Virus record (IMG/VR): IMGVR_UViG_3300023174_004605
Coordinates: 31,737-95,736 of that record
Source of the DNA: a virus
Reading direction: 5' to 3' (one strand)
Length of the DNA: 64,000 nucleotides
Below are positions 1-28,065 of the stretch, in pieces (the stretch's first letter is position 1; every line of letters begins with the position of its first letter). Made by a program: the position numbers and the translations under genes. Under the pieces are notes generated by a model, which was not told where the DNA came from, ran no database searches, and saw nothing but the letters and a program-made list of their open reading frames with translations.

Positions 1-912
1 CTATCTGCAAACAAAAATAATGGTGAGATTTCGGAAATCGGAGTAGGTGGTAGCACCTATGTGTTGACAGAACTATCCGAACTCTTGGACAAAACATTTT
101 TTATTTTTGATATTGATAAAGAATATACAGATATAGTCGTTAACAATGTTCACTTTTGGCCAGGCGCAAAGTTAAAAATTTGCATAGACAACAGCACGAA
201 TTTGCACAATTACCCAGATATTCCTAAATTATCATACTGTCATGTTGATGGTGCTAAAGAATTTGACATTACTGTATCTGATTTGCAATTTTATCTTGAC
301 CATCTGTCCGTAAACGGCTTGATATGTCAAGATGATTACGGTAACAATAAATGGCCCACAGTAACTGATGCAATTAAACATTTAGAGCAAACAAACAAGA
401 TAAAGATTGTTATGATTGGTGACTCAAGTGCCTGGGTGACCAAACCAGAGTATTATGATTATTGGATGGACATTTTAAATAATGACTATGAATTTTCTTT
501 ATTAACAGCATTGTGTAGTGTTTCTAGTTCAGAAAAATTAAACAAAGTTCCAAAATATTTTTTTTTACAATCTATCTTTAACTATAGTTTATTGACTGGC
601 TACACTGAATCAGAGAAAAAATATTTTAAAAATATTTTAGCGGCAAAGAATCATCAAAATTATCTAACAATGCCGTATTATGCACAAAGTGAAATAGGCT
701 TTGCTTTAGATAATAATGTTGACGATGGATATATTTTAACTGTGGCATGGGATAGCATCAAAGGACCAGACTGGCCACAAGAAGCTCCGGTTCTCAGAGA
801 AGAAATTGAAAGATTGCCTGATTGGATAAAACATGAACTTTTTCATGTTCACAACTTCAATGATCTTTTTAAATGTGTTGTAAAAAAAACAAATTTTGAA
901 ATAAAGGAATAA
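1..912 (+). CDS. Class I SAM-dependent methyltransferase-like protein (5' partial)
   Basis: Frame is open from base 1 (LSANKNNGEISEIGVGGST...). EIGV motif I, HVDG and GLICQDDY motifs resemble the Methyltransf_24 type. Confidence 0.6.
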   Translation, partial: LSANKNNGEISEIGVGGSTYVLTELSELLDKTFFIFDIDKEYTDIVVNNVHFWPGAKLKICIDNSTNLHNYPDIPKLSYCHVDGAKEFDITVSDLQFYLDHLSVNGLICQDDYGNNKWPTVTDAIKHLEQTNKIKIVMIGDSSAWVTKPEYYDYWMDILNNDYEFSLLTALCSVSSSEKLNKVPKYFFLQSIFNYSLLTGYTESEKKYFKNILAAKNHQNYLTMPYYAQSEIGFALDNNVDDGYILTVAWDSIKGPDWPQEAPVLREEIERLPDWIKHELFHVHNFNDLFKCVVKKTNFEIKE

Positions 913-924
913 TAAACAAATAAA

Positions 925-1383
925 ATGACACTAATAGCCAAACCAGTAATAGACAAACAGTTTTGGATCTTACAAGAAAACGATCGCAAGATCGGTAATA
1001 TCGAAGCCTGCAACGGAGGGTATCAAGTCAAGATCAACAATCAAGTAGCACAATTCCGAACAATCAAACTGGCAGCAAAATATATTAATATTGAATTCGA
1101 AGCTCCAGTGAAAAAAATCAAGTCCAAGATCCACTCAGATCATGTGCATGGATATCCGGTATCGGGGCGTATGCATAATCCCATGTGGGACGTGCCACAA
1201 CAGTTACCAGTGTACACTAAATCAGTCAAGAGCAAATCGTGGTTTGCCGCAGGATGGTACAATGTGCGCCGGGGACGGCATTGGCGCACAGTGCAGTGCC
1301 CAAAATTAATCGTTCTACAGCGATATGCCTACCAAGGTCCTTTCTATACCGAACAAGAAGCCCATGACCATACATCTAAATAA
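925..1383 (+). CDS. Hypothetical phage protein (152 aa)
   Basis: ORF with AAGGA upstream; operon-like packing. Confidence 0.75.
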   Translation: MTLIAKPVIDKQFWILQENDRKIGNIEACNGGYQVKINNQVAQFRTIKLAAKYINIEFEAPVKKIKSKIHSDHVHGYPVSGRMHNPMWDVPQQLPVYTKSVKSKSWFAAGWYNVRRGRHWRTVQCPKLIVLQRYAYQGPFYTEQEAHDHTSK

Positions 1384-1573
1384 ATTCATAGAACGTGTAC
1401 TGGGACACGAAGCACGTGGTGCTCGTGATTTTGTCATGAGCATGAAAGACGCACGAGACCTACATGCAGATATTACCAGATTATTGCTGGAATTGAACAA
1501 TCTGCGTGAACAAGACACCAAACACAGCCAAGAAGAAGTGATCACTGTACAGGTCACCGGAGGCACATTCTAA
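1364..1573 (+). CDS. Hypothetical phage protein (MTIHLNKF...)
   Basis: ATG at 1364 overlaps the end of the upstream gene. Confidence 0.65.
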   Translation: MTIHLNKFIERVLGHEARGARDFVMSMKDARDLHADITRLLLELNNLREQDTKHSQEEVITVQVTGGTF

Positions 1574-1618
1574 AACTACCTATATTTTCTGATAAATAAA
1601 ATATAGGAGTTTAATGAC

Positions 1619-1906
1619 ATGAGTCGCCCAAAACCCAGCGTATTAATTGAGCATATCAACAAGACCACCTACAAAACCGAGCAGGTCTTGGCCAGTGAAG
1701 GTGTGTGGGCCGTGTTCTATGATGCCAAACCCATCAACTTAAAAACATCAAACATGTTGGTGCAGTATCCTGGCCCAAAATACAAAAAGGTTTCATTTAG
1801 CAATCCGGGGCATGCCAAAAATCTGGCCAAAAAACTCAACACGCAATTTAAAACAGATCGATTCACAGTGGTGTTGTTAAGAGCCGGGGATCAGGTCTAT
1901 CCCTGA
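1619..1906 (+). CDS. Hypothetical phage protein (95 aa)
   Basis: AGGAG RBS and an upstream ATAAATA late-promoter-like motif. Confidence 0.8.
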   Translation: MSRPKPSVLIEHINKTTYKTEQVLASEGVWAVFYDAKPINLKTSNMLVQYPGPKYKKVSFSNPGHAKNLAKKLNTQFKTDRFTVVLLRAGDQVYP

Positions 1907-1910
1907 TGAT

Positions 1911-2282
1911 GTGCGTGACAAACATCTACTGACACAACAACTCATCGAGCTCTTGCCCGAGGCCGATCGTGTGCCTATAGATGCGGCCTTGCCAGCCTGG
2001 TGGTTCAACATCCGACGTACCGGTGGCATGCGATTGACAGGCATTGGATATGATGTATTGTCTCGTCGGTTGGACCTCGAAAACTACGAGTATGCCATCA
2101 CAGATCCTTTGACTTTCAACAAGCGTCTCATGCTCAAATTGGATAGGAAAATGCAGATGCCCTACTATATTTCGGCCACCAAAGGCATACCCAAAAAGAT
2201 CGTGTTTTTTGGAAGCCGAGAAGCGGTCATGGTCAATCTCTACGGTAATTTGGAACAATTTCTTGACAACTACGGGCCTTGA
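1911..2282 (+). CDS. Hypothetical phage protein (123 aa)
   Basis: GTG-start ORF directly after the previous gene. Confidence 0.7.
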   Translation: MRDKHLLTQQLIELLPEADRVPIDAALPAWWFNIRRTGGMRLTGIGYDVLSRRLDLENYEYAITDPLTFNKRLMLKLDRKMQMPYYISATKGIPKKIVFFGSREAVMVNLYGNLEQFLDNYGP

Positions 2283-2291
2283 TGCTATACT
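2263..2291 (+). promoter_or_regulatory. sigma70-type promoter for the tRNA(CAT)
   Basis: TTGACA-N17-TATACT with extended -10 TG, 8 nt before the tRNA. Confidence 0.8.
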
Positions 2292-2299
2292 GTAATCAA

Positions 2300-2387
2300 G
2301 GGCCGAACGCCGTATTGGTTGCAGGCAGCGGACTCATAATCCGCCTCAGAAATGACACTGTGGGTTCAAATCCCTCTCGGCCCACCA
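2300..2387 (+). tRNA. tRNA with CAT anticodon (Ile2 or Met) and a long variable arm
   Basis: Acceptor GGGCCGA/TCGGCCC, A73, encoded CCA; anticodon arm GCGGA-CTCATAA-TCCGC; T-loop TTCAAAT; variable arm TCA-GAAA-TGA. Confidence 0.85.
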
Positions 2388-2404
2388 GTTAAAAGGTAAA
2401 TATC

Positions 2405-2584
2405 ATGACCGTGGAACAGCAAAAGAAACCGCCTGTAGAACGCTATTACTACTCGGAAGACGAGTGGGCAAGACTGGGTTGTGGTCCGTTGCCACCCGAA
2501 AGAGATCGTGCTCGGCAACTAGAAAATGTTATGGCAAAAGGAAATCCCCGGATTGACGGCAAAAACATCAAAGGGTATAATTAA
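2405..2584 (+). CDS. Small hypothetical protein (59 aa, MTVEQQKKPP...)
   Basis: Manual translation; AAGG upstream; below the ORF-track cutoff. Confidence 0.6.
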   Translation: MTVEQQKKPPVERYYYSEDEWARLGCGPLPPERDRARQLENVMAKGNPRIDGKNIKGYN

Positions 2585-2585
2585 C

Positions 2586-2669
2586 ATGTGGTTGATATTT
2601 TTTGCATTCATGGCCATAGTGATTTGCTATGGTATTATGTGGTTGAATGAACATCAGGACGAACAATGA
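2586..2669 (+). CDS. Putative single-TM micropeptide (27 aa, MWLIFFAFMAIVICYGIMWLNEHQDEQ)
   Basis: Manual translation; starts 1 nt after the upstream stop; hydrophobic. Confidence 0.5.
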   Translation: MWLIFFAFMAIVICYGIMWLNEHQDEQ

Positions 2670-2758
2670 ACATATTGAAAAACATTCCCTGGGCAGCTAT
2701 AGCTGCCCTGGCAGTATTTGTGGCCATGGGAATAGTGGCTCACTTGTTTGGTAAATGA
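2666..2758 (+). CDS. Putative single-TM micropeptide (30 aa, MNILKNIPWAAIAALAVFVAMGIVAHLFGK)
   Basis: ATGA overlap with the previous ORF; AGGA upstream. Confidence 0.55.
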   Translation: MNILKNIPWAAIAALAVFVAMGIVAHLFGK

Positions 2759-2759
2759 C

Positions 2760-2828
2760 ATGAATCAAGACTACAGTTTTGCCATTGGTGTAGTAGTAGT
2801 GGCTATTGTGTTTTTATTGCTTTTTTAG
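2760..2828 (+). CDS. Putative single-TM micropeptide (22 aa, MNQDYSFAIGVVVVAIVFLLLF)
   Basis: Starts 1 nt after the previous stop; hydrophobic. Confidence 0.5.
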   Translation: MNQDYSFAIGVVVVAIVFLLLF

Positions 2829-2866
2829 TTTCCAATTTTGATCAAAATTGGTGGTAGGACGGGTCT

Positions 2867-2974
2867 ATGAATAAAATACAAGTTTTCACACTGGGCACAG
2901 GACTAGTGATCATGTGGTTGTTTTACAAATTAACTTTGGAAATTTGGTGCTGGATTTATGGTCTATTCTATTGA
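2867..2974 (+). CDS. Putative membrane micropeptide (35 aa, MNKIQVFTLGTGLVIMWLFYKLTLEIWCWIYGLFY)
   Basis: AGGA upstream; hydrophobic. Confidence 0.5.
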   Translation: MNKIQVFTLGTGLVIMWLFYKLTLEIWCWIYGLFY

Positions 2975-3023
2975 CAACGAACTTGAAAAATATCATCTAA
3001 CCGGTGGCCTATGTCGTTTTTAT

Positions 3024-3031
3024 TATAAATA
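3024..3031 (+). promoter_or_regulatory. T4-type late promoter (TATAAATA)
   Basis: Exact consensus about 30 nt upstream of ORF 3060. Confidence 0.6.
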
Positions 3032-3059
3032 ACACTATTAACCAAAAAAGGAAAAAAAT

Positions 3060-3332
3060 ATGGCATTCGACACTTTAACAAGTTTTGCTCGACAGCTAAC
3101 AACTGCAGAAGAGACTTCAGTCCAAAACTATGTGACGACTCAAATGGGGTCAGGAACAACCAATGGTATATCGTATAGTGTTCAACGAACCGGAGTAACC
3201 ACCGCAGAAGGTCAACCCTTAGCACTCATTCTTCGCGGGTGGGTTGATGAAAGCTCAGCCAACGCCTATATAGCATTTTTGAATACTTTTAGCCCGGCGC
3301 CGGTTTATGCACAGACGGTGCAATCTGTATAA
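3060..3332 (+). CDS. Hypothetical protein (90 aa), probably late-expressed
   Basis: AAGGA RBS and late promoter motif. Confidence 0.75.
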   Translation: MAFDTLTSFARQLTTAEETSVQNYVTTQMGSGTTNGISYSVQRTGVTTAEGQPLALILRGWVDESSANAYIAFLNTFSPAPVYAQTVQSV

Positions 3333-3336
3333 TACC

Positions 3337-3366
3337 TAGACTGGCAAAGTAAAATTGTAGTATAAT
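3337..3366 (+). promoter_or_regulatory. sigma70-type promoter for tmRNA
   Basis: TAGACT-N18-TATAAT directly upstream of the tmRNA acceptor piece. Confidence 0.6.
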
Positions 3367-3372
3367 GCCTTG

Positions 3373-3685
3373 AAAGAAAGGTGTTGCGGACCTGGGGGCA
3401 GAACCCAGCAGGTCCACCATAAAGAAATTACATAGACATTGATCATAGTTGTAATTGCATTGGTCTTCCATGTATTGAACAATTAGTTTCTTTATGATGG
3501 GCCTGACACAGTTTCGACGTGGCAACAAGTATGGACAGGATCTACACGGCAAAGCAGAAGCCGTAGGACTGGGGATTCCTGGTCGTAGAAGCAACCTTAT
3601 TAAATGCAAACGCATCTAATGACGAGGTTTTTGCCTTAGCGGCATGATCTCCGGGGCAACTATGCCTTGTCACCCAAACTAGTCT
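3373..3685 (+). ncRNA. ssrA: Circularly permuted (two-piece) tmRNA
   Basis: Acceptor piece ...GACCTGGGGGCAGAACCCAGCAGGTCCACCA ends at 3419. It precedes the coding piece starting GGGCCTG at 3499, which pairs with CAGGTCC and includes the G3:U70 Ala pair, followed by GTTTCGAC. Tag frame 3606-3647 reads ANASNDEVFALAA*. Outer ends are approximate. Confidence 0.92.
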
Positions 3686-3712
3686 AAAAAGCCTGAGAAA
3701 TCAGGCTTTTTT
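3686..3712 (+). terminator. Intrinsic terminator after tmRNA
   Basis: AAAAAGCCTGA-GAAA-TCAGGCTTTTTT. Confidence 0.85.
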
Positions 3713-3789
3713 GTTGGCCACTAAGTAAAAACCACTAAATAAAGAGTTGGGTGATCACCCAGCATTCTTTTAAAAGGAAAATCTCAAGC

Positions 3790-4530
3790 ATGAAAAAATT
3801 ATTAATCGCATTAGCCTTGTCCGCTGGCTTGGTTGCCTCGGCTCAAGCTCAACTCACCGGCAATTTAGGTTTGACCAGCGACTACCGTTTCCGCGGTGTT
3901 AGCCAAACTCAAAATGCTCCTGCAGTTCAGGGCGGCATCGACTATGCACACAAGAGTGGCTTCTATGTTGGTAACTGGAACAGCTCGGTCTCTAGCCAAG
4001 TCTACACCTCAGGTGCAGGTTTAGAAAGTGACTTGTATGCTGGTTACAAGAAAGAAATCTTCAAGGGCATTAGTATTGACGTTGGTAGCTACAATTATTT
4101 CTATCCACGTGCAACCACTTCCGCAAAAACTGGTTCAAACTTTGACACCTATGAAGGCTATGTCGGATTGGGTTACAAAGATATCATCTCTGCCAAGTAT
4201 AGCAGAACCTTAGGCGAAGGCTACTTTGGTACAGCCAATGCACAAGGCACAACTTACATGCAAGCAGATGGCAAGTTGCCAGTTCCTGTAGTAAAAAATC
4301 TAGCTGTTGTTGCGCACTATGGTCGCACCAATGTGGCCAACAGCACAGCATATGATTACAATGACATCAATGCTGGTTTTGTTTACAGCTTACCAAAAGA
4401 CTTTGACTTGAGCGTGAAGTATTTTACCAATACTGGCACAACAAGAACTTTCGAAACTGCAAACACTGTGAGCGGTCAAAAGCTATACAAAAACGCAGTG
4501 GTAGTTGGCTTGACAAAAACTTTCAATTAA
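3790..4530 (+). CDS. TorF-family (TIGR02001-like) putative outer-membrane porin
   Basis: Signal peptide MKKLLIALALSAGLVASAQA, then SDYRFRGVSQT, PAVQGGIDY, GFYVGNWNS and ESDLYAGY family motifs; C-terminal TKTF beta-signal. Confidence 0.85.
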   Translation: MKKLLIALALSAGLVASAQAQLTGNLGLTSDYRFRGVSQTQNAPAVQGGIDYAHKSGFYVGNWNSSVSSQVYTSGAGLESDLYAGYKKEIFKGISIDVGSYNYFYPRATTSAKTGSNFDTYEGYVGLGYKDIISAKYSRTLGEGYFGTANAQGTTYMQADGKLPVPVVKNLAVVAHYGRTNVANSTAYDYNDINAGFVYSLPKDFDLSVKYFTNTGTTRTFETANTVSGQKLYKNAVVVGLTKTFN

Positions 4531-4545
4531 TTCCGAAAGTGATAC

Positions 4546-4573
4546 AAAAAAAGCTCCTTCGGGGGCTTTTTTT
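4546..4573 (+). terminator. Intrinsic terminator after porin
   Basis: GCTCC-TTCG-GGGGC followed by T7, preceded by an A-tract. Confidence 0.85.
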
Positions 4574-4588
4574 GTTGACCCAACCCGG

Positions 4589-4617
4589 TTGACAAGATAT
4601 AAATAGATCTATATAAT
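4589..4617 (+). promoter_or_regulatory. Consensus sigma70 promoter with embedded late-promoter motif
   Basis: TTGACA(4589-4594)-N17-TATAAT(4612-4617); TATAAATA at 4598-4605. Confidence 0.9.
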
Positions 4618-4623
4618 ACTATT

Positions 4624-4725
4624 ATGTTGAATCGCAAAGTCGACCATCTCGTACCACAGCCCAATTTTGCAGGGAGCGTGGTTCTATGGACAATTTGTAA
4701 AGAAGGAATTCAGGGTATTGAATAG
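4624..4725 (+). CDS. Leaderless attenuator leader peptide (33 aa, MLNRKVDHLVPQPNFAGSVVLWTICKEGIQGIE)
   Basis: ATG sits at the predicted +1; the stop lies inside the antiterminator 5' arm; 27 distinct codons among 33. Confidence 0.7.
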   Translation: MLNRKVDHLVPQPNFAGSVVLWTICKEGIQGIE

Positions 4726-4785
4726 TATAAAACATCATACAATATTCAAAAACCCTGGAACTAAACACTCCGGGGTTTTTTGTTT
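4709..4785 (+). promoter_or_regulatory. Attenuator: antiterminator (4709-4759) overlapping an intrinsic terminator (4748-4785)
   Basis: CAGGGT/ACCCTG, TTGAATA/TATTCAA and GTAT/ATAC compete with CCCTGGA/TCCGGGG plus TTTTTTGTTT; segment 4752-4759 is shared. Confidence 0.8.
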
Positions 4786-4802
4786 AGAAAGAAAGGAAAA
4801 AG

Positions 4803-4976
4803 ATGTCAATTGATTATGAAAAATTAAACGATCAAATCGTAAAACAGGCCTGGGACCACACTTCGGTATTTTTGAACGAGGCACAAAAGCAACGGCTGTT
4901 TCAGAACAAGATCGATCGTGCGGCCGCAATGATCCGGGCGCAGGAGCAGTTCCGTATGATGCAACAAGAACAGTGA
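4803..4976 (+). CDS. Small hypothetical protein (57 aa, MSIDYEKLNDQIVKQAW...)
   Basis: AAGGA RBS; first gene after the attenuator. Confidence 0.65.
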   Translation: MSIDYEKLNDQIVKQAWDHTSVFLNEAQKQRLFQNKIDRAAAMIRAQEQFRMMQQEQ

Positions 4977-4982
4977 AACAAT

Positions 4983-5058
4983 CGCGGGGTGGAAAAGTTG
5001 GCATTTCGTCAGTCTCATAAGCTGAAGGTCGTCGGTTCGAATCCGACCCCCGCAACCA
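4983..5058 (+). tRNA. tRNA-fMet(CAT), initiator-like
   Basis: CGCGGGG/CCCCGCA acceptor with C1:A72 mismatch; anticodon arm TCAGT-CTCATAA-GCTGA; TTCGAAT; CCA. Confidence 0.9.
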
Positions 5059-5060
5059 AT

Positions 5061-5208
5061 TATGATCTGGGACGGCAAGCGGCAAAGGCTGTCACAGCAG
5101 GATCTCGAAAGTTGAGGCCGTTGCTGAGTTGTTGACATACAGCCGCAGAGGCCACTGGTTGTTCCAGTTTACGGATAAGATCTCCGTTGAGGTAAACGAA
5201 TAAGGTCA
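5061..5208 (+). ncRNA. Candidate structured RNA of unknown class inside the tRNA array
   Basis: Nested helices TGATCT/AGGTCA, GCGGC/GCCGC, TGTCA/TGACA, CAGCAG/TTGCTG, ACTGG/CCAGT, CGGA/TCCG; no credible + strand ORF. Confidence 0.45.
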
Positions 5209-5304
5209 AAATGTATTCCATGTGTATAACTCCTAGTAATATATATCGCAGTTTATATGCGATTTTTCAAGGGATCCAATACATTTTTGTTATGAGCTTA
5301 TTAC

Positions 5305-5382
5305 AGTGAGGTGGCAGAGTGGCCCAATGCAAGGGACTGCAAATCCCTAAAGCCGTGAGTTCGAATCTCACCCTCACTTCCA
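5305..5382 (+). tRNA. tRNA-Cys(GCA)
   Basis: AGTGAGG/CCTCACT, U73, CCA; AGGGA-CTGCAAA-TCCCT. Confidence 0.95.
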
Positions 5383-5388
5383 AGTTTG

Positions 5389-5462
5389 GTCGGTCTGGTA
5401 TAATGGCATTACAGCGGTCTCCAAAACCGTTAATTGAGGTTCGATTCCTTAGACCGGCGCCA
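5389..5462 (+). tRNA. tRNA-Trp(CCA)
   Basis: GTCGGTC/GACCGGC, G73, CCA; GCGGT-CTCCAAA-ACCGT. Confidence 0.95.
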
Positions 5463-5487
5463 TGTTTAGAAAAGAAAGGAGGCACGT

Positions 5488-6078
5488 ATGCCAGCAGTAT
5501 TTTTAGTCAGCGACACACACTTTGGTCACGCAGGTGTATGTCGCTTTACCCGTAACGATGGTGTGACCAAACTCAGACCATGGACTGATCCAGATGAAAT
5601 GGACGAGGCCATGGTAGCAGCGTGGAATGATCGTGTGCGTCCAAATGACAAGGTTTACCACTTGGGCGATGTTGTTATCAACCGCAAGGCCTTGGGCATC
5701 ATGCGCAGGCTCAACGGTGAAAAGGTCTTGATCCGCGGCAACCACGATATTTTTAAAGACGAGGATTATACACCTTATTTCCGTAGCCTACGTGCCTACC
5801 ATGTGATGAATGGCATGATCTTGAGTCACATGCCTATTCACAGTGAAAGCCTGGGTCGCTTTGGTGTCAACATCCATGGACATTTGCACGCCAATCGTGT
5901 GATGTTGCCCGGATTCAATGGCAAGATCACCGACATCGTTGATACTAGGTATCATTGTGTGTGCGTGGAGCAGACCGACTTTGCGCCAATCCTGTTTGAA
6001 GATGTGGTCAAAAGAATCGAAGCAGAAGGTGGTGTAATAGGTTTCAAGAATGGCAATGGAACCACGCAAGCGACCTAG
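5488..6078 (+). CDS. Calcineurin-like metallophosphoesterase
   Basis: SDTHFGH, HLGD, GNHD, SH and HGHLH metal-binding motifs; GGAGG RBS. Confidence 0.9.
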   Translation: MPAVFLVSDTHFGHAGVCRFTRNDGVTKLRPWTDPDEMDEAMVAAWNDRVRPNDKVYHLGDVVINRKALGIMRRLNGEKVLIRGNHDIFKDEDYTPYFRSLRAYHVMNGMILSHMPIHSESLGRFGVNIHGHLHANRVMLPGFNGKITDIVDTRYHCVCVEQTDFAPILFEDVVKRIEAEGGVIGFKNGNGTTQAT

Positions 6079-6085
6079 TAGTTCG

Positions 6086-6162
6086 ACCCCGGTGGCGCAA
6101 CAGGCAGACGCACTCTCCTCAGAAGGGAGCTGTTGAAGGTTCGAATCCTTCCCGGGGGACCA
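6086..6162 (+). tRNA. tRNA-Leu(CAG) with short variable loop
   Basis: Leu-type D-arm GCGCAACAGGCAGACGC; CTCTC-CTCAGAA-GGGAG; GAAGG-TTCGAAT-CCTTC; A73, CCA. Confidence 0.85.
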
Positions 6163-6191
6163 TTGACATCATTGATCTTTTGTAGTATAAT
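6163..6191 (+). promoter_or_regulatory. Consensus sigma70 promoter for the omega-like gene
   Basis: TTGACA-N17-TATAAT. Confidence 0.85.
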
Positions 6192-6212
6192 TGTTGTTCA
6201 CAAGGAGAAGCC

Positions 6213-6434
6213 ATGAGTGTAAGAATTGAAAGTCGTAGCAGTGAAATTGATACCGAACGCTGTGTAGAGCATGCTGGTGGCCGTTATGATCTTGTGATCG
6301 CCGCCGCACAACGCTTAAGAGAAATGAAACGCCGAGCCAGAGAAACCAACTCTTGGGTCACGCCCATTGATGCACTCAAAGAAGTACAGAGTGGAACTTT
6401 TAATATGACTGATTATTTGGTAAAGGTAAAATAA
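6213..6434 (+). CDS. rpoZ: RNA polymerase omega subunit homolog
   Basis: ERCVEHAGGRYDLVIAAAQRLRE...ALKEV matches the RpoZ pattern (C.E...NRF.LV..A..RAR...AL.EI); AGGAG RBS. Confidence 0.75.
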   Translation: MSVRIESRSSEIDTERCVEHAGGRYDLVIAAAQRLREMKRRARETNSWVTPIDALKEVQSGTFNMTDYLVKVK

Positions 6435-6436
6435 AC

Positions 6437-6595
6437 ATGGCAAAACGTCAAAGTGCAGGTGAACTAAGTCGAACCATTGCTGGACAATGGTCAAAAAGCG
6501 AAAAGCGTTCAGCGGCCAGTAGAAGCATCACAGAAGCCAACAAGAAAGCACATCAAACTCTCAAAAAAATTGCTCAACAAATGAGAATGAAGTAA
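6437..6595 (+). CDS. Small basic protein (52 aa, MAKRQSAGELSRTIAGQWSK...)
   Basis: Manual translation; starts 2 nt after the rpoZ stop and ends just before tRNA-Glu. Confidence 0.6.
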   Translation: MAKRQSAGELSRTIAGQWSKSEKRSAASRSITEANKKAHQTLKKIAQQMRMK

Positions 6596-6598
6596 CAT

Positions 6599-6674
6599 GC
6601 ACCCATCGTCTAGAGGCCCAGGACTCGGCCCTTTCACGGCTGCAACAGGGGTTCGAATCCCCTTGGGTGTACCA
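6599..6674 (+). tRNA. tRNA-Glu(TTC)
   Basis: GCACCCA/TGGGTGT; D-arm GTCTAGAGGCCCAGGAC; CGGCC-CTTTCAC-GGCTG; CCA. Confidence 0.95.
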
Positions 6675-6685
6675 ACATTTTGAAT

Positions 6686-7273
6686 ATGTCAACATCAGTT
6701 TTAGTCACCGGAGGTAATCAAGGGCTTGGCATAGACTTGGCTCAATACTTTGATGCTCATAGTGTCAGCAGAAGCACAGGGCACGACATCTTGGCAGGTC
6801 GTGAAGCCATCGCCGAACTCAGTGCCAATTATGATGTGTTCATTAACAATGCATATGATGGGTTGTTTGGGCAAAGCAGAACAGCATATGGCCAGGCACA
6901 GTTGTTGACCGAAGTGGCCATGCTGTGGCGTGATCAGGGCAAAGCCGGGCACATCATAAACATTGGTGGAGTAGGCAGTGAAGACACTGGTGTACCGTAT
7001 CCAGGCTGGGAAAGTTACAATGCCAACAAGGCCGCACTCAAACATGTGAGTCTACAGTGGACGCAGGCCTTCCGTGCCAATCAGGTCTTATTCCGTACTA
7101 GCTTGATCACTGTGGACAGATTGGACACACCAGCAGGTCGTGCCAGACCTACCTGGACTGGCAATGGAGTTGCGTCTCAAGATATCATTGGCATGATCAA
7201 ACTCTGCCTAAACACTCAACCAAATACCTGTATAGGCGAAATAACTAGCTGGGTTAATCTTGATTATAAGTAG
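6686..7273 (+). CDS. Short-chain dehydrogenase/reductase (SDR)
   Basis: TGGNQGLG, DVFINNA and YNANK (YxxxK) motifs. Confidence 0.85.
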   Translation: MSTSVLVTGGNQGLGIDLAQYFDAHSVSRSTGHDILAGREAIAELSANYDVFINNAYDGLFGQSRTAYGQAQLLTEVAMLWRDQGKAGHIINIGGVGSEDTGVPYPGWESYNANKAALKHVSLQWTQAFRANQVLFRTSLITVDRLDTPAGRARPTWTGNGVASQDIIGMIKLCLNTQPNTCIGEITSWVNLDYK

Positions 7274-7297
7274 ACATACAAAATCAGGATCACAATC

Positions 7298-7513
7298 ATG
7301 TCAAACAAACTCATCCGCAAAAAACCTGGCTACACCCGAAGTGGCGAAGTCAAGATCATCAGTCTCGGCATCAAGCAGTTGATGGATCTCAAAGAAAAAA
7401 CACAAACCAATAAAAAACGGGCCAAGATACAGCGTCGCATAGACTTGCTGAAACGTAGATCTGGATATGTGGAACCTGTGGTCGAAGTCACAGAAGAAAC
7501 ACAGCCGGTTTAG
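7298..7513 (+). CDS. Small basic hypothetical protein (71 aa)
   Basis: AGGA RBS; stop codon falls inside the tRNA-Thr 5' end. Confidence 0.65.
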   Translation: MSNKLIRKKPGYTRSGEVKIISLGIKQLMDLKEKTQTNKKRAKIQRRIDLLKRRSGYVEPVVEVTEETQPV

Positions 7514-7578
7514 CTCAGCGGTAGAGCAGTGGTTTTGTAAACCAAAGGTCGGGAGTTCAATCCTCTCAACCGGCACCA
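7504..7578 (+). tRNA. tRNA-Thr(TGT)
   Basis: GCCGGTT/AACCGGC; TAGCTCAGCGGTAGAGC; anticodon loop TTTGTAA; CCA. Confidence 0.95.
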
Positions 7579-7595
7579 TTAACAAGGAAATAACT

Positions 7596-7760
7596 ATGAG
7601 CAAAATGAGCGATTTCTTAAAGAAAGCCGCAGACAAGAAAAAAGGCATCCATCACATTGAAAATGAAGATGCGCCTGTGGTAGAACGAAAAACAGCCAAA
7701 CAACGTGCACCGGTAATTGGAAAAAAACCACCCACACGATCGGCTGGCAGGGGAAGATAG
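7596..7760 (+). CDS. Small Lys/Arg-rich protein (54 aa, MSKMSDFLKKAADKKK...)
   Basis: AAGGA RBS; 3' part of track ORF 7467..7760. Confidence 0.65.
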   Translation: MSKMSDFLKKAADKKKGIHHIENEDAPVVERKTAKQRAPVIGKKPPTRSAGRGR

Positions 7761-7793
7761 ATTACTAAAAAAATTATTTGGCCTATCTGGGCA

Positions 7794-8714
7794 GTGGCAG
7801 TACTGAGCACTTGGCTGTACTTGATCTTGACCGGTCCAGGGTTTGAGTTGTATGAAACACATTGGCTCTATGCTCTAATGATGGTGTTTGGTTCGGCTGT
7901 AGCCGGCTTTACTCCCGAAGGCGGCGGCGCTGTGGCGTTCCCTATCTTGAGCTTGTATTTTAACATACCACCAACAGCGGCCAGAGACTTTAGCTTGGCC
8001 ATACAAAGCATTGGAATGGTATCAGCGGCCATATGGATCCTAACAAGGAAAGCACATGCCCTAAGAACATTTAGACACATACCGTTTTATGCGGCTGTGA
8101 ACATGATTGGTTTTGTGCTCATGACTGCTGTAGCAGGAGCCTTTGCTTTCAAAACCATACAGATGTTGTTTGTGGGCTTGGCCCTGGCATTTATTGTAGC
8201 TTACCTAGTCAGCCGTGGGCGTGGAACGGTAGATGACGTGGAACTTTCTGGAACTAGATTTGTGACTTTTGCTGTGTTTTCATTCATAGGTGGCTGTGCC
8301 TCTGCCATGTTTGGAACTGGAAGTGACATGTTGATCTACATAGCCTTGACCTGCTACTATGGTATGAAAGAAAAGATCAGCACCGACATCAGCATTGTCC
8401 TCATGGCAGTGGTCACAGTGTTTGGTATTGCTTATCGTAGTTTGTTTTTAGACGCGGTGCATCCAGATGTTTATTTGATGTGGTTAGCGGCCGCACCGGT
8501 GGTGTTGTTCTTTGCTCCATTTGGTAATATCTTGTTAGGCTGGGCACGCAAAGAAACTATGCTTTACACCGTGCTGGCCATGAATGCAGTGAACTATTTT
8601 TATTTTATAAGTAAAAATATGAATTTGATTGTGCCAACCTTGATTACACTTGTTGTGTTTACAGCAATGTTTGTTTCAAGTTTTTATGTCAAAAACAAAC
8701 TAAAACATGATTAA
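7794..8714 (+). CDS. TauE/SafE (TSUP) family membrane transporter
   Basis: Multiple TM helices; AGFTPEGGGAVAFP and SAMFGTGSD repeat motifs; start uncertain. Confidence 0.8.
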   Translation: MAVLSTWLYLILTGPGFELYETHWLYALMMVFGSAVAGFTPEGGGAVAFPILSLYFNIPPTAARDFSLAIQSIGMVSAAIWILTRKAHALRTFRHIPFYAAVNMIGFVLMTAVAGAFAFKTIQMLFVGLALAFIVAYLVSRGRGTVDDVELSGTRFVTFAVFSFIGGCASAMFGTGSDMLIYIALTCYYGMKEKISTDISIVLMAVVTVFGIAYRSLFLDAVHPDVYLMWLAAAPVVLFFAPFGNILLGWARKETMLYTVLAMNAVNYFYFISKNMNLIVPTLITLVVFTAMFVSSFYVKNKLKHD

Positions 8715-10341
8715 AAAAATTGTGATAGTAGGTGGCGGATTTGCTGGGTGGTATACAGCAGTTTCGTTGCAATACAACCTTCCAGAATTAGAAATCATTA
8801 TCGTCGACAGCGAAAAGCATCCTACCATTGGAGTTGGAGAAACTGTGGGCTGGGATGCCCCGCTCAACTTACAAAGATTATGCGGCTTATCAGACGACCG
8901 ACTTTTTATGTACGAGACCGGAGCCGTATACAAGTTCGGTGTAAGAGGCATTAACTTTTTTTCTGATAATTCGATTCACCGATGGGGGAAATTCCTAAAC
9001 CTCAAAACATCAGCGTTGTGCAATTACTATAACGAATTTGATTATTCTGATTTTGATGAACCTTGGAATCGATCTCCCAATGACATTGGCACAATGAAAG
9101 CATGGTTGATTCGGTATCATGCCATGAAAAATTATGAAGATTTGTGTCTTGACTTAGGAGAATTAAATCATTTTTTAACCGAACCGGTGGCTCCTTTCAA
9201 TCGCAACAACAAATACGTTTTGCGATCAGCACCAGGTCATGCATTTGGATATCATATTGACGCAGAAAAGTCAGGGGTTTTCTTGAAAAAAATAGCCTAT
9301 CAAAGAAACACTGGTAAACTTAAACACATCACCAGCAGTGTTGTCAATGTTGCACTTGCAGATAATGGTTCAATAGAAAAAATACAATTAGAAAACGGAG
9401 AAAATATCACCGGCGATTTATTCATTGATGCCTCTGGACTGCAACGAGTGATTGTGAGTCGCAGCACAAACTACAGTTGGACCGGCAAGGACCATAGATA
9501 TTCTAATGCAGCATGGGTATGTCCTAGTCGCTACACTGATCCAACCAAAGAATTAATAGGTGCCACTGAATTTATCGGCGACACATGGGGATGGCGATTC
9601 AAAATTCGATTGTTTCATCGTATAGGCAATGGTTATGTTTTCAATTCCGATCAAGTTGATCCAGAGAAACCATTGGCCACTATAAACGCCGCAACTAAAA
9701 CAACACAACTCAAGGAGCCTAAACTTATAAGATGGTCTCCTGGCGAGTATGTGCATCATTGGCATAAAAATCTTATTCCCGTAGGTATGGCAGCGAGTTT
9801 TATTGATCCTTATGATGCTCCAACTTTTGATGCGCACAGTCGATCACTTGATGATTTGTTAGATTTGTTAAAAAATCCAAACAAATATAAAAACCCTGCA
9901 GAAGAATACAACAAACGCAGATCTTATACCGCAGAAGAAAGGAATCTACGTTTAGATATAACATTCGGTATATCTCAACGTTCCGGTCCATATTGGGATT
10001 TACGTCGACAAATAGCACAGGAAAAAAATTGTTTGCGTGAACTAAAAAACATTATTTTAGAAAAAAGACTAGACCTCGAATCAAGGATGACCTGGCACTG
10101 GCATCAACAATATATTAGATCCGCTATGGCGGCCAAAGTAGACATGACCGATTGGGAGTTTCCTAAAGTGCCCGATAAAGACCTCGACATGCTGACAGCA
10201 TTTTATAATTTCAATAGGCAACGCAACAAACACATTACACAACAAGAATGGCCAAATTACTCAACATGGTTGCAACAAAACCGATTTAATGATCAGACCA
10301 ACCAACAGGTTTTGCAAAGACTACAACCACAGCTTTGTTAA
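8707..10341 (+). CDS. Tryptophan-halogenase-family flavoprotein (divergent)
   Basis: IVIVGGGFAGW, IGVGE, YKFGV, YHIDA, DLFIDASG and RIGNGYVF motifs. Confidence 0.85.
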   Translation: MIKKIVIVGGGFAGWYTAVSLQYNLPELEIIIVDSEKHPTIGVGETVGWDAPLNLQRLCGLSDDRLFMYETGAVYKFGVRGINFFSDNSIHRWGKFLNLKTSALCNYYNEFDYSDFDEPWNRSPNDIGTMKAWLIRYHAMKNYEDLCLDLGELNHFLTEPVAPFNRNNKYVLRSAPGHAFGYHIDAEKSGVFLKKIAYQRNTGKLKHITSSVVNVALADNGSIEKIQLENGENITGDLFIDASGLQRVIVSRSTNYSWTGKDHRYSNAAWVCPSRYTDPTKELIGATEFIGDTWGWRFKIRLFHRIGNGYVFNSDQVDPEKPLATINAATKTTQLKEPKLIRWSPGEYVHHWHKNLIPVGMAASFIDPYDAPTFDAHSRSLDDLLDLLKNPNKYKNPAEEYNKRRSYTAEERNLRLDITFGISQRSGPYWDLRRQIAQEKNCLRELKNIILEKRLDLESRMTWHWHQQYIRSAMAAKVDMTDWEFPKVPDKDLDMLTAFYNFNRQRNKHITQQEWPNYSTWLQQNRFNDQTNQQVLQRLQPQLC

Positions 10342-10518
10342 TTAATTTTGATTTTAATCAGCACATAAATACCTTTCGCAACGCCGGGTTCTTCCGACGT
10401 CGGCATTCAAATCGACGCTTGACATTGTGATGTCTTTACTGTATTATAATACATAACGCCGAGCCGTAGCAGAGTTCTTCTGCAAGCTCTTAAAAATTAA
10501 AAATTTAGGAGATCTAAC

Positions 10519-11445
10519 GTGATCAAAAAAATAGCCTCTCTGTTGGTTGTTCTGGCTGTTTGCACCAGTGCCAGTGCCCGAGAAATAATTACTGTATATT
10601 CCCCTTACAGTCCCAGCCATGCTGGAACCACAGCCACTAGAAAAGTGTTTGAAGTGGCCAATGCCGCTCAAAACAAGTATCAATTTATTTTGGAATTCAA
10701 AGCCGGTGCACAAGGTGTATTGGCCTTGAAGGAAATCGAAGACAATCCTGCAAACAAACTGGCCATTATCTTTGCGGCCTTTGTTGACAATGTTGAAAAG
10801 AAATTGATCAACGAGTCAGATTATGTGCCAGTACATGCACTGGGAGACGCTTGCTGGGCTGTGGTCAGCCTTGAAGGTGATCCCAGACAGGGAATAGCCA
10901 GTCTGGCCAGTGCCCGTGAAATAGTAGTGGGCAGCGTGGGATTTGGCAATGCCACCCATCTTACGGCCTTGCAGATTGGATCCAGGTACAACGTACCAGT
11001 GCGTTTTGTGCCATTCAAGTCTAACTATGACAGCATGATGGCCATGGTGGGCGGGCACGGGATAACCTTTAATTTAGAACGTGTCAGTGTGATTGAACAG
11101 TTCCGAGACAAAAATCCCAATCTCAAAATCTTGGCCATGAGTTGTCCTGTGCGCCATCCAGATGCTCCCGGTATAAAAACTTTAAAAGAACAAGGCATCA
11201 CAGCTCCTTATGTGTTTAACACCATAGTGGCACACCAACGCATGTCTAGAGAGCGAGCCAAAGAGCTAGGTGCCATCTTGGATCAAGCCACGCTGACAGT
11301 GGGTGTTGACGAACTACGACGACTAAGCGATTTCCGCCCTGCTGTTTTTGACAAGATTTCTGCTGAAGAATTTACACGTAGCAGAATATCCATGGTCAAG
11401 CAGTTGAGACAGCAACATCGCAGTGCCATCGAAGAAAGCCGCTAG
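10519..11445 (+). CDS. Tripartite tricarboxylate transporter substrate-binding protein (Bug/TctC-like)
   Basis: Signal peptide; KAGAQG, GSVGFGNATHL, VPFKS and PGIKTLKEQG motifs; AGGAG RBS. Confidence 0.8.
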   Translation: MIKKIASLLVVLAVCTSASAREIITVYSPYSPSHAGTTATRKVFEVANAAQNKYQFILEFKAGAQGVLALKEIEDNPANKLAIIFAAFVDNVEKKLINESDYVPVHALGDACWAVVSLEGDPRQGIASLASAREIVVGSVGFGNATHLTALQIGSRYNVPVRFVPFKSNYDSMMAMVGGHGITFNLERVSVIEQFRDKNPNLKILAMSCPVRHPDAPGIKTLKEQGITAPYVFNTIVAHQRMSRERAKELGAILDQATLTVGVDELRRLSDFRPAVFDKISAEEFTRSRISMVKQLRQQHRSAIEESR

Positions 11446-12599
11446 TGAGCCAATATCTCTATCACAACAAAGGTATCTACACCTGTAATGGTCGACATTT
11501 CCACAACAAGATAGATGCCATATTTGAAGCCAACACGTCCGGACGTCACGTGGAATGGGATTATCATCATGCAATTTTTGATCAGCATCAATGGCATGTA
11601 GATCCACCAGTAGAGCTGGAAGAATTGTACAAACAACGTGCCCTTCAATTGAGAGAGGCCTATGATCACTTGGTGCTGTTCTACAGCGGTGGCGTGGATT
11701 CCTGGTACATTCTCAAAATGTTTATCAAGTACAACATTCGCTTGGATGAAATCTACATGTACGGACCTTTCAAGGCCGAGGAAAAAATGTATGATCAACT
11801 GGGATTGGATCGCAGTCCAGGGTACTACACCAGAGAAATCCGACAAAGTTTGCCACTGTTAAAAAAACTAGTGGCCGAGTACCAAATCAAAATCAATGTT
11901 TTTGATTGGACCGAACACATAATCAAAGCAGCCGATGATCGCGACTGGTTTTACACGGCCGGAGTGCGGTTTGATCCCACCTGCATGGTTCGCTCAAAAT
12001 TCCATAAAATTTTTAGAGAACACAGTGAGCTTAGACACCGAGGTAAAAAAGTTGGATTTGTGTATGGTATCGACAAGCCCAGATTGATCAGAGATGACAA
12101 CGCCATCTACTTTGCATTTTTAGATGTAATCTTTACTACCAGTGTTTTGCCAACCAATGACATCCAGGGTGAGTTTTATGAAAATGATGAGTTTTTTTAT
12201 TGGACTCCAAACATGCCCGAACTGTCAATCAAAATGAGTCACGAAGTCGTCAAGTATTTGACCTCGATCAATCAAATCAATTTGATCAAACACGTAAAAA
12301 ATATCGCAGCCTTTCATGATGAGTCCTACTACCGCCAGGTCAATCGTGCAATTTATCCACTCTGGGATCACAATATCTGGCAGGTCAAAAAACCAACCAG
12401 TGCCATTTACAATGAACAGAGCAAATGGTTTTTAGACAGTGATCTTGAAGCCAAACTCAAATGGGAATCCAGTATCTATGAACTAGAAAGACTGTGCGGC
12501 AAACAATGGTTCAATGAAAATTCTGTCAGAAATGGGCTTAAAGGTCATCTCAGTCCAATGTATAAAATCGCTAATTATCAGGAGAAAATAATATCATGA
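11445..12599 (+). CDS. PP-loop / adenine-nucleotide alpha-hydrolase superfamily protein
   Basis: LVLFYSGGVDS (SGGxDS) motif; GIDKP. Confidence 0.7.
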   Translation: MSQYLYHNKGIYTCNGRHFHNKIDAIFEANTSGRHVEWDYHHAIFDQHQWHVDPPVELEELYKQRALQLREAYDHLVLFYSGGVDSWYILKMFIKYNIRLDEIYMYGPFKAEEKMYDQLGLDRSPGYYTREIRQSLPLLKKLVAEYQIKINVFDWTEHIIKAADDRDWFYTAGVRFDPTCMVRSKFHKIFREHSELRHRGKKVGFVYGIDKPRLIRDDNAIYFAFLDVIFTTSVLPTNDIQGEFYENDEFFYWTPNMPELSIKMSHEVVKYLTSINQINLIKHVKNIAAFHDESYYRQVNRAIYPLWDHNIWQVKKPTSAIYNEQSKWFLDSDLEAKLKWESSIYELERLCGKQWFNENSVRNGLKGHLSPMYKIANYQEKIIS

Positions 12600-26809: not shown

Positions 26810-28065
26810 ATAAAAAATTGCAAGTCAAAAAACTTTATGACAAATATGGAGATAAAATTTGTTTGGCTCCATTTCTTAATAATTTTTACACTACAAGTCA
26901 CATAGTTGGAAAAGATCAGACAGCTATAAATCAGATAAAACCTTGCACAGTTATAAAATCAAATAACGAATGGAACATACAGAATTCAAGTATCAGTGAC
27001 TCAAGAAATAATATTCACTGGAAAAATCTTCGGTCAGCAATGTTAAATGGACAATTAGATCAGCTACACGGTTGTCGAGATTGTAGTGGTGCTGAAAAAC
27101 TTGGAGCTTCCAGTTCACGTCAACTCAATAATGAATATCTATTCGAGCATCTTGACCTAGATATCATGGCCGAAATAGAAAAAATTATCAACAATGGACT
27201 AACTGTAGATAGTGTTCATGCATTAGACTACATGCCCAGCAATTATTGTAACTATGCCTGTGTTATGTGTATTGCCGGTGCCAGTAGCCAACGCCATGTA
27301 TTTGAAATAAAAAATGGTGCGAAAACAAAAAATGTAACAAATCCAGTTGAGTCTGATTTTTTTGACCTACTAAAAGATGTAAAAATATTGGGTTTTACCG
27401 GCGGAGAAACTATATTGCAACCCGAGGTTCATAAAGTAATAGATCAAATAATTGAAAAAGATCTTGCTAAAAATATGATAATAACCATGCTAACCAATGC
27501 AAGTGATTTTCCCGACGAGATGGTTGAGAAGTTTAAACATTTTAAAAAAGTTTTATATACAGTTAGCATTGACGGAATTGGTGAGATTATTGAATATCAG
27601 CGCCGTGGAGCTGATTGGAACACTGTAGAAAAAAATACAATAAAGATACATCAAACTCCGGTGGTTCATGAGATTGTTAATCATGTGGTATCTGCTATTA
27701 ATATTTTACATGCCATGGATTTCGTCGATTGGTGTCATGCCAATGACATGAAATTTATTGCCATAAGCCCAGTCTATCAACAAAATACCTTGGGCGTAGC
27801 TGCGTTGCCTCCTGAATTGAGAACCGTGGCCCTTGAAAGATTAAAAAATGGTAGAAAAAGATACGAGCATTACAGAACTGGATACACCAACCATGAAAAA
27901 AACTGGTTAGATACTATAGACCGTTTAATAAGTAGTGTTGAAAATGTAGAATTTAGTCCAGATGCTTTGCAAAAATTTATTAAACATATTGAACTAGAAG
28001 ATATGTTTAGTAAAAGACCGCTCAGAGAAGTGGTTCCAGAATGGGCTCCTTGGTTTGTTAACTAA
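26806..28065 (+). CDS. Radical SAM protein with N-terminal twitch/SPASM-like domain
   Basis: CNYACVMC, FTGGET, SIDG; N-terminal C...PC...CRDC. Confidence 0.9.
   Translation: MNKKLQVKKLYDKYGDKICLAPFLNNFYTTSHIVGKDQTAINQIKPCTVIKSNNEWNIQNSSISDSRNNIHWKNLRSAMLNGQLDQLHGCRDCSGAEKLGASSSRQLNNEYLFEHLDLDIMAEIEKIINNGLTVDSVHALDYMPSNYCNYACVMCIAGASSQRHVFEIKNGAKTKNVTNPVESDFFDLLKDVKILGFTGGETILQPEVHKVIDQIIEKDLAKNMIITMLTNASDFPDEMVEKFKHFKKVLYTVSIDGIGEIIEYQRRGADWNTVEKNTIKIHQTPVVHEIVNHVVSAINILHAMDFVDWCHANDMKFIAISPVYQQNTLGVAALPPELRTVALERLKNGRKRYEHYRTGYTNHEKNWLDTIDRLISSVENVEFSPDALQKFIKHIELEDMFSKRPLREVVPEWAPWFVN

Follow-up and report, generated by a model that had tools for sequence, protein, structure and literature searches.

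A putative leader-ORF attenuator at the head of a tRNA block in a giant freshwater phage

Here, we describe a leader element that precedes a block of transfer RNA (tRNA) genes in a 64,000-nucleotide (nt) stretch of viral DNA (bases 31737-95736 of a 95.7-kb IMG/VR virus record; hereafter the window), and that we read, with moderate confidence, as a ribosome-mediated transcription attenuator gating the phage tRNA block. The element is composed of a consensus promoter, a 33-codon leader open reading frame (ORF) and a terminator/antiterminator switch, and comparison with relatives indicates that this leader-switch unit is a real, conserved element. The tRNAs would probably be transcribed mainly when ribosomes read the leader slowly. 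The source is described as a giant freshwater phage, and the record is ~28% complete by estimate. A T4-type baseplate wedge protein is among the virion proteins encoded in the window, and this gene content marks the virus as a large myovirus.

The element begins with a sigma-70 promoter that matches the consensus at 12 of 12 hexamer positions (Table 1). Only two such matches were found by a promoter scan between positions 2000 and 9000, this promoter being one of them, and it is conserved in homologs reached through protein anchors. Most of the homologous promoters found in this way also keep the motif ATAAATA (4599-4605) in their spacer, which is not a standard sigma-70 element. Upstream, the intrinsic terminator of a Gcw_chp-family gene is predicted to shield the leader element from upstream transcription. 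A hairpin and T-run ahead of the promoter are also found in many homologs, though their upstream genes differ. A first-pass annotation of this DNA had called a perfect promoter with an ATG at the predicted +1, and both hexamers and the ATG at 4624 are indeed read there. This ATG is the seventh base past the -10 hexamer (6 nt between) and has neither a Shine-Dalgarno sequence nor room for one, so that the leader transcript should be leaderless or nearly so. A recount of the ORF agrees with the same annotation in that it uses 19 of the 20 amino acids (Tyr is missing) and that 24 of its first 25 codons are distinct, AAT being used twice. The spread over synonymous codons that had also been taken as a signal is not above chance in the window leader (z = 0.13, P = 0.57); Ile, Asn, Lys, Glu and Gln each repeat one same codon.

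The end of the ORF lies within the switch. As proposed earlier, it forms part of the 5' arm of a hairpin that sequesters a terminator arm: the helix 4709-4716:4752-4759 competes with the terminator at 4749-4779, and the TAG stop (4723-4725) sits in the antiterminator 5' strand. The terminator 5' arm overlaps the antiterminator 3' strand by ~8 nt, and the two helices are predicted to be mutually exclusive. The minimum-energy fold of 4624-4785 contains a hairpin at 4719-4748 and the 11-bp terminator (4749-4779) with the U-run after it. When the terminator 3' arm is omitted, mimicking transcription, the RNA folds into one long stem of -17.2 kcal/mol that uses the terminator 5' arm.

Both states are conserved among 47 homologous sequences. 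In the terminator, 95% of cells are paired and four pairs show double-sided changes. The antiterminator architecture, in which the terminator 5' arm pairs with a G-run just ahead of the stop, is common to all 47, and the mean pre-terminator energy is -19.9 kcal/mol compared to -12.6 kcal/mol with the upstream part shuffled, the real sequence being better in 47/47. Furthermore, the antiterminator core covaries: one basal pair is AU in 17, GC in 11 and GU in 10 sequences, and all shuffle and slide controls are lower. One homolog (L150) carries matched changes in three segments, namely the upstream strand, the shared strand and the terminator 3' arm. Full-length folds end in the terminator state in 38 cases and in the antiterminator state in nine, which suggests that the two states are close in energy. 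The stop codon is found within the antiterminator 5' strand in all homologs, with a stop-to-terminator-arm spacing of 28-35 nt throughout. Hence, with a predicted ribosome footprint, the end of the ORF appears to be placed such that a terminating ribosome masks the antiterminator. Neither an anti-antiterminator (1:2) hairpin nor a pause hairpin is conserved among the homologs, and in the terminator state no segment pairs consistently with the antiterminator 5' strand. Thus, an untranslated leader should default to read-through.

The homologs were reached through the neighbouring phosphoesterase, the Gcw_chp-family gene and later the promoter motif; blastn of 4400-5500 against the phage database returned tRNA matches only. 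In total, 47 distinct and nine more divergent elements were collected, representing more than 50 distinct phage contigs and 15 peptide clades. The first-pass annotation had suggested looking for a leader ORF with covarying alternative stems upstream of tRNA arrays in related phages, and the ORF and the alternative stems are present in all 47 elements, ahead of a tRNA array wherever the downstream sequence is long enough. The first 28 homologs were collected by blastn or by the downstream 57-amino-acid (aa) gene, the ORF not being considered, and in 27 of them the promoter is followed, after 0-10 nt, by an ATG that opens a frame of 31-53 codons. The 28th belongs to a class with a 5' untranslated region (UTR), in which the ORF is also present. 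An open frame of 27-53 codons is kept in all homologous elements, some of which were selected with its help, and the leader ORF accompanies the switch at all loci that nhmmer matched. The frame is maintained through insertions of up to 20 codons, differences in the closest clade are dominated by the third codon position (270/146/469 at positions 1/2/3), and the ORF body shows no conserved pairing by RNAalifold. Because of this frame retention, the third-position changes and the unstructured body, we read the leader ORF as coding. Across clades, the peptides share an N-terminal motif, a Gly at around residue 16-17, a Trp at around residue 20-23 and a Cys two to four residues further on. Of 54 leaders, all contain Cys and 53 contain Trp, at positions that are conserved in most clades.

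All loci with sufficient downstream sequence are followed by a tRNA array on the same strand, mostly at a distance of 200-1200 nt and in one case of ~1700 nt. A covariance model of the switch, run on five relatives of 220-367 kb, gave matches with E < 1e-3 at the heads of tRNA blocks only. A further match, below threshold (E = 0.02), is likewise located at the head of a tRNA block, with a 46-codon leader of its own; three other weak matches in these relatives are ordinary terminators. The element has no second copy in the 95.7-kb record, no Pfam family matches the 33-aa leader product, and no Rfam family matches the element (E <= 1 on 1-12000; gathering thresholds on the whole window). The Rfam Thr_leader family (RF00506) was considered and ruled out, as its match covers the terminator region alone and scores 25.4 bits against a threshold of 55 bits (E = 0.31). 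In sequenced RNA runs, related sequence was found only as Logan contigs of relatives, mostly less than 95% identical, and such contigs carry no starts, ends or levels.

The proposed mechanism connects these parts. Downstream of the terminator, the genes follow in the order given by the first-pass annotation, namely the 57-aa ORF, tRNA-Met(CAU), a 246-nt spacer, tRNA-Cys, tRNA-Trp, a metallophosphoesterase and tRNA-Leu. The promoter scan found no further promoter-like site on the + strand between 4617 and 6163, so that the 57-aa ORF through tRNA-Leu would depend on polymerases passing the terminator. The anatomy, its conservation and covariation, the location at array heads and the composition statistics are observed, whereas we infer translation of the ORF, the start site, ribosome-polymerase coupling, the direction and size of the effect, and whatever depletes the tRNAs. 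Transcription would start at or beside ATG 4624, and the leaderless 5' end would allow a 70S ribosome to load and move along behind the polymerase. A ribosome that is at the last codons or the TAG while the polymerase transcribes 4749-4781 would cover the antiterminator 5' strand (4709-4728), upon which the terminator could form and an RNA of ~158 nt would be released. Failed initiation, or a ribosome that falls behind or stalls no later than codon 25, would let the antiterminator (4709-4759) form first and sequester the terminator 5' arm, and the polymerase would continue into the unit listed above. TGG, ACA and TGT, and then GAA, lie just before the switch, at what would be the critical position. 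These codons had been noted earlier as matching Trp, Thr, Cys and Glu tRNAs of the phage itself, and the corresponding genes are present on the record. The run TGG-ACA-ATT-TGT is our candidate for the last codons at which a stalled ribosome leaves the antiterminator 5' strand free, according to a predicted footprint geometry.

Given a near-complete set of amino acids and codons of the phage's own tRNAs ahead of the switch, transcription of the block would be expected under slow decoding, most of all at those codons, and would cease once supply is adequate. A more specific form of this model is a roster-type homeostat, which we put forward only tentatively. Here, the leaderless AUG would report on initiator tRNA and the late Trp, Thr, Cys and Glu codons on phage-encoded tRNAs, such that the array is switched on when host tRNAs are scarce or destroyed (for example, through anticodon nucleases or under starvation) and turned off again by the tRNAs that it yields. 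Anticodon nucleases as the trigger are conjecture on our part.

What the leader senses can be approached through its composition. The window leader contains 19 kinds of amino acid compared to 15.2 expected from 33-residue windows of the phage's own proteins (P ~0.013), and z = 1.8 against an independent and identically distributed (i.i.d.) null with Met, Trp and Cys forced in. Over the 15 clades, variety exceeds the i.i.d. null with a mean z of +0.77 (P = 0.011), and with a mean z of +0.85 (P = 0.003) once Met, Trp and Cys are forced into the null. All 20 amino acids occur in the leaders of seven clades (38-53 residues). This lends modest support, at the level of the family, to a broad sensing of decoding. 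Furthermore, the window leader includes 13 amino acids without a cognate tRNA gene in the 95.7-kb record.

The position of codons points to a more selective readout. In the window leader, codons read by six downstream tRNAs make up none of the 19 codons from 2 to 20 and five of the 13 codons from 21 to 33 (background 14%, P = 0.027). At 34 loci, with leaders divided at the Trp, the share of such codons is 17.8% in the N-terminal part and 36.8% from the Trp to the end, with a background of ~21%. With clades equally weighted, the matched fraction rises from ~0.3 to 0.59 at -18 to -10 nt from the antiterminator edge and then falls, and across clades the codons read by array tRNAs cluster 10-27 nt ahead of the switch. 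A ribosome stalled 10-18 nt before the antiterminator edge would abut the switch and not cover it. Moreover, amino-acid enrichment in the C-terminal part tracks the frequency of tRNAs in arrays (rho 0.78, P = 5e-5), compared to a rho of -0.12 for the N-terminal part. The match between leaders and their own arrays is closer than after permutation of the arrays among clades (84.2 vs 78.6 +/- 2.6, P = 0.014), and an array tRNA for an amino acid is accompanied by that amino acid in the leader in nearly every case. The sole Trp-less leader clade (L213) has no tRNA-Trp in 6 kb of array either, and the Tyr/Glu/Phe-rich tail of its leader corresponds to an array with Tyr, Glu and Phe tRNAs. Leader length or variety shows a positive trend with the number of tRNA isotypes that is not significant (rho 0.37-0.43, n = 10 clades), and many arrays are incomplete at the ends of the sequence available. 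Taken together, the leader appears tuned to its array and the sensor not uniform; there is some support for both broad and codon-matched sensing, and the evidence favours a mixture.

Several points weigh against attenuation by codon sensing. The N-terminal motif x-N-x-K/N-L/V-H-x-S-L is kept across deep clades, including the class with a 5' UTR, which counts against pure codon sensing because a codon sensor would not need it. The leader has no codon runs, only one Trp codon and one Cys codon, and no CTG codon for the tRNA-Leu(CAG) of the controlled block. Termination requires a ribosome no more than ~75 nt behind the polymerase, and does so without a recognisable pause hairpin. Attenuation gives no reason for the conservation of the terminator loop (4760-4768, ACUAAACAC; consensus AAYUAAACACU), which is kept across clades far more than the neighbouring hairpin loop. 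On the statistical side, the clades share ancestry, which makes the P values optimistic; the split at Trp behind the 34-locus fractions and the rho values places Trp in the C-terminal part by construction; and an enrichment of Gly and Glu near the 3' end may come from the RNA helices (GGG core, GAAUAG). Finally, the later loci were chosen by promoter pattern and by an ORF-and-terminator filter and are not counted for ORF conservation. The conserved loop, the ATAAATA motif and the N-terminal peptide motif would be compatible with a peptide or RNA that acts in trans, or with a nascent-chain effect, in addition to attenuation.

The first-pass annotation had proposed a general sensor of almost any codon. 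In its pure form, this would be a translation-rate sensor in which all codons are equal, nothing is tuned to the phage tRNAs and any slowing opens the switch. Its architecture would be identical to the one described above, it has a precedent in the whiB7 leader discussed below, and the part of the claim that stands is the amino-acid variety above chance across the 15 clades, with 20/20 amino acids in seven and 13 amino acids of the window leader lacking a tRNA on the record. The part that does not stand is the equivalence of codons: matched codons are confined to late positions, leaders fit their own arrays better than permuted ones, and the Trp-less L213 leader faces an array without tRNA-Trp and its Tyr/Glu/Phe tail an array with matching tRNAs. 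With synonymous spread in the window at chance as well, we regard a purely general sensor as unlikely. A similarly low probability is given to a stand-alone small-protein gene, in which the 33-aa product acts in trans, the terminator is an ordinary leaky one, the hairpin stabilises the 3' end of the mRNA and the tRNAs are made by constitutive read-through. The motif in the N-terminal half, the fixed Trp and Cys across clades and the synonymous changes would all be expected of such a gene, and the unit owns a promoter and a terminator. However, the 3' base of the hairpin always overlaps the terminator 5' arm, the hairpin always encloses the stop and covaries, and the stop-to-terminator spacing is fixed at 28-35 nt. 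The element is also confined to tRNA-block heads with no other promoter for the tRNAs, and its peptide has no Pfam match and a composition that follows the array.

The peptide might alternatively act while still on the ribosome, as an arrest-peptide sensor of the TnaC or SpeFL kind, with a conserved nascent chain (Trp, Cys and acidic residues) that stalls on a small molecule and sets the switch. Amino-acid conservation does exceed the needs of codon sensing, and in clades with 32-34 codons the invariant Trp lies 10-13 residues before the stop, resembling Trp12 of TnaC. Among clades, however, the Trp-to-stop distance ranges from 10 to 33 residues with a fairly constant distance from Trp to the N-terminus, a stall at the stop would favour termination here, and there is neither a Rho-dependent layout (the terminator is intrinsic) nor an obvious ligand. 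We therefore consider this very unlikely. Still less probable in our view is that the product is the ~158-nt terminated RNA itself, acting in trans and possibly as a dual-function small RNA (sRNA) like rnTrpL with the terminator loop as its functional site. Attenuator-derived sRNAs are a known class, a strong promoter followed by a strong terminator would suit one, and the terminator loop is much better conserved than the adjoining hairpin loop. Against this, sites complementary to the conserved loop are at chance level in the window, with no complementary site found there and no Rfam match. The ORF body is conserved as coding and not as structure, and an sRNA leaves the position at array heads unexplained, although such a role could coexist with attenuation. 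An attenuator that gates the tRNA block thus remains the reading we prefer.

Classical leaders (trpL, hisL and pheL, and the multivalent thrL and ilvL) consist of a short ORF and mutually exclusive helices, and the multivalent ones sense several amino acids. The phage element resembles these enterobacterial leaders in that a short ORF is followed by exclusive antiterminator and terminator helices, with a ribosome at the end of the ORF predicted to mask the antiterminator and an upstream stall to free it. The earlier label of an 'inverse design' does not apply, since this polarity (ribosome at the stop and terminator, upstream stall and antiterminator) is the classical trp/his logic. In contrast to enterobacterial leaders, the phage element has single control codons in place of runs and lacks a 1:2 anti-antiterminator or pause hairpin, for which reason the default without a ribosome should be read-through. 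It is further distinguished by its leaderless start, by being encoded by a phage and by tRNAs being regulated instead of biosynthetic enzymes. T-box riboswitches bind uncharged tRNA directly and do not need translation. The phage element is similar in that the choice between terminator and antiterminator would report on the tRNA pool, but it has a conserved ORF and no T-box match in Rfam (E <= 1, 1-12000).

The annotation knew of no described system of this kind, yet the whiB7 upstream ORF (uORF) attenuator of Mycobacterium smegmatis is a described analogue. This uORF is longer than the phage leader and contains every amino acid but Cys, and its efficient translation leads to termination and any translation stress to read-through (PMC10274678). 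A single Trp codon is enough to sense a shortage of Trp, and its removal blunts the response (PMC10274678). The phage element and the whiB7/wblC leaders of Actinobacteria thus share an amino-acid-diverse ORF with a terminator/antiterminator switch. Unlike the phage element, whiB7 is cellular, controls a transcription factor with positive feedback and has an alanine-enriched uORF (PMC10274678). No WhiB-family factor is found downstream of the phage switch, where the 57-aa ORF, tRNAs and the phosphoesterase are located, and we found no sequence relationship between the phage element and the whiB7/wblC uORF. As regards the target, an accessory tRNA operon (trn) in Anabaena PCC 7120 is silent and induced on impaired translation, which was attributed to the repressor TrcR (PMC10272220). 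In contrast to the phage element, the trn paper makes no mention of a leader peptide, attenuation or a terminator (PMC10272220). Relative to known attenuators, the new features are the leaderless start, the absence of codon runs and of a 1:2 hairpin, and tRNA genes as the target. A literature search found no published leader-peptide control of phage tRNA genes.

Discussions of phage tRNA genes mostly concern codon usage or the substitution of tRNAs that host defences have cleaved, and we know of next to nothing on how the expression of these genes is controlled. If our reading is correct, the phage gauges decoding capacity directly and produces tRNAs as they are needed, which would link tRNA-targeting defences and starvation to phage tRNA expression and would broaden classical attenuation to include RNA products and leaderless leader ORFs. 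If the homeostat holds as well, it would represent trp-operon-style feedback with tRNA as the end product, conserved across a large group of uncultured giant phages. The element spans ~200 nt, acts in cis and would need only host polymerase and ribosomes, which makes it testable even though the phage is uncultured.

Table 1. Coordinates of the leader element and of the genes behind it, in window positions.
Feature	Position	Strand	Details and basis
Intrinsic terminator of upstream Gcw_chp-family gene	4547-4575	+	G+C-rich hairpin, then T-run; read directly
Sigma-70 consensus promoter	4589-4617	+	12/12 match; TTGACA 4589-4594, 17-nt spacer, TATAAT 4612-4617
Leader ORF	4624-4725	+	33 codons and TAG; direct reading and ORF list
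Candidate control codons TGG-ACA-ATT-TGT	4687-4698	+	Trp22, Thr23, Ile24, Cys25; conserved Trp/Cys, position of matched codons
Antiterminator (long hairpin)	4709-4759	+	Basal helix 4709-4716:4752-4759, apical hairpin 4718-4749; folding
Intrinsic terminator	4749-4781	+	11-bp stem, 9-nt loop ACUAAACAC, U-run; -15.2 kcal/mol alone
57-aa ORF	4803-4976	+	First gene past the terminator; good ribosome-binding site
First tRNA block	4983-5462	+	tRNA-Met(CAU) 4983-5058, tRNA-Cys(GCA) 5305-5382, tRNA-Trp(CCA) 5389-5462; ARAGORN, Rfam
Calcineurin-like metallophosphoesterase	5488-6078	+	Pfam PF00149
tRNA-Leu(CAG)	6086-6162	+	tRNA prediction; last gene of the unit behind the 4589 promoter

The first gene behind the switch encodes a 57-aa product without a Pfam match. 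It is present in ~18 relatives, and other small genes take its place in others. The tRNA-Met(CAU) that follows resembles bacterial initiators in its C1-A72 mismatch but not in its anticodon stem, where the three G-C pairs are missing. Within the closest clade, the tRNA array behind the leaderless leader usually begins with tRNA-Met. The spacer between tRNA-Met and tRNA-Cys (5059-5304) has no Rfam match, folds mildly better than chance (z = -1.9) and contains a hairpin with a U-run at ~5246-5270. The same Met-to-Cys spacing is found in one relative (L088). The second 12/12 consensus promoter begins at 6163, the base after tRNA-Leu, and the tRNA-Glu and tRNA-Thr genes are located behind it. It also precedes a gene for a 73-aa protein (6163-6434) with a sub-threshold match to the RNA polymerase omega subunit (Rpb6; 23.9 bits against a threshold of 26 bits).

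In total, the RNA genes of the record comprise one permuted tmRNA (transfer-messenger RNA) and seven tRNAs, all located at window positions 2300-7578. The permuted, two-piece tmRNA (3326-3738; Rfam tmRNA_permuted, 106 bits) encodes the tag ANASNDEVFALAA. In most relatives, the leader element is preceded at a distance of 0.5-2.8 kb by a permuted tmRNA, with variable cargo between them. In the window, this cargo is the Gcw_chp gene (3751-4530), which encodes a 259-aa protein (Pfam, E = 2e-47) with a signal-peptide-like N-terminus and is conserved in 50+ contigs of related phages (45-96% identity). Another tRNA(CAU), which is 88 nt in length and has a long variable arm (2300-2387), is located just behind a near-consensus promoter (2263-2291). 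Further away, at least three radical-SAM-domain proteins are encoded in a run on the - strand (33151-38980) with a carbamoyltransferase nearby (28058-29533), which suggests a cluster for small-molecule or peptide modification. Finally, a single ORF of 4771 aa occupies 46684-60999 on the - strand and adjoins the baseplate wedge gene (60999-63929).

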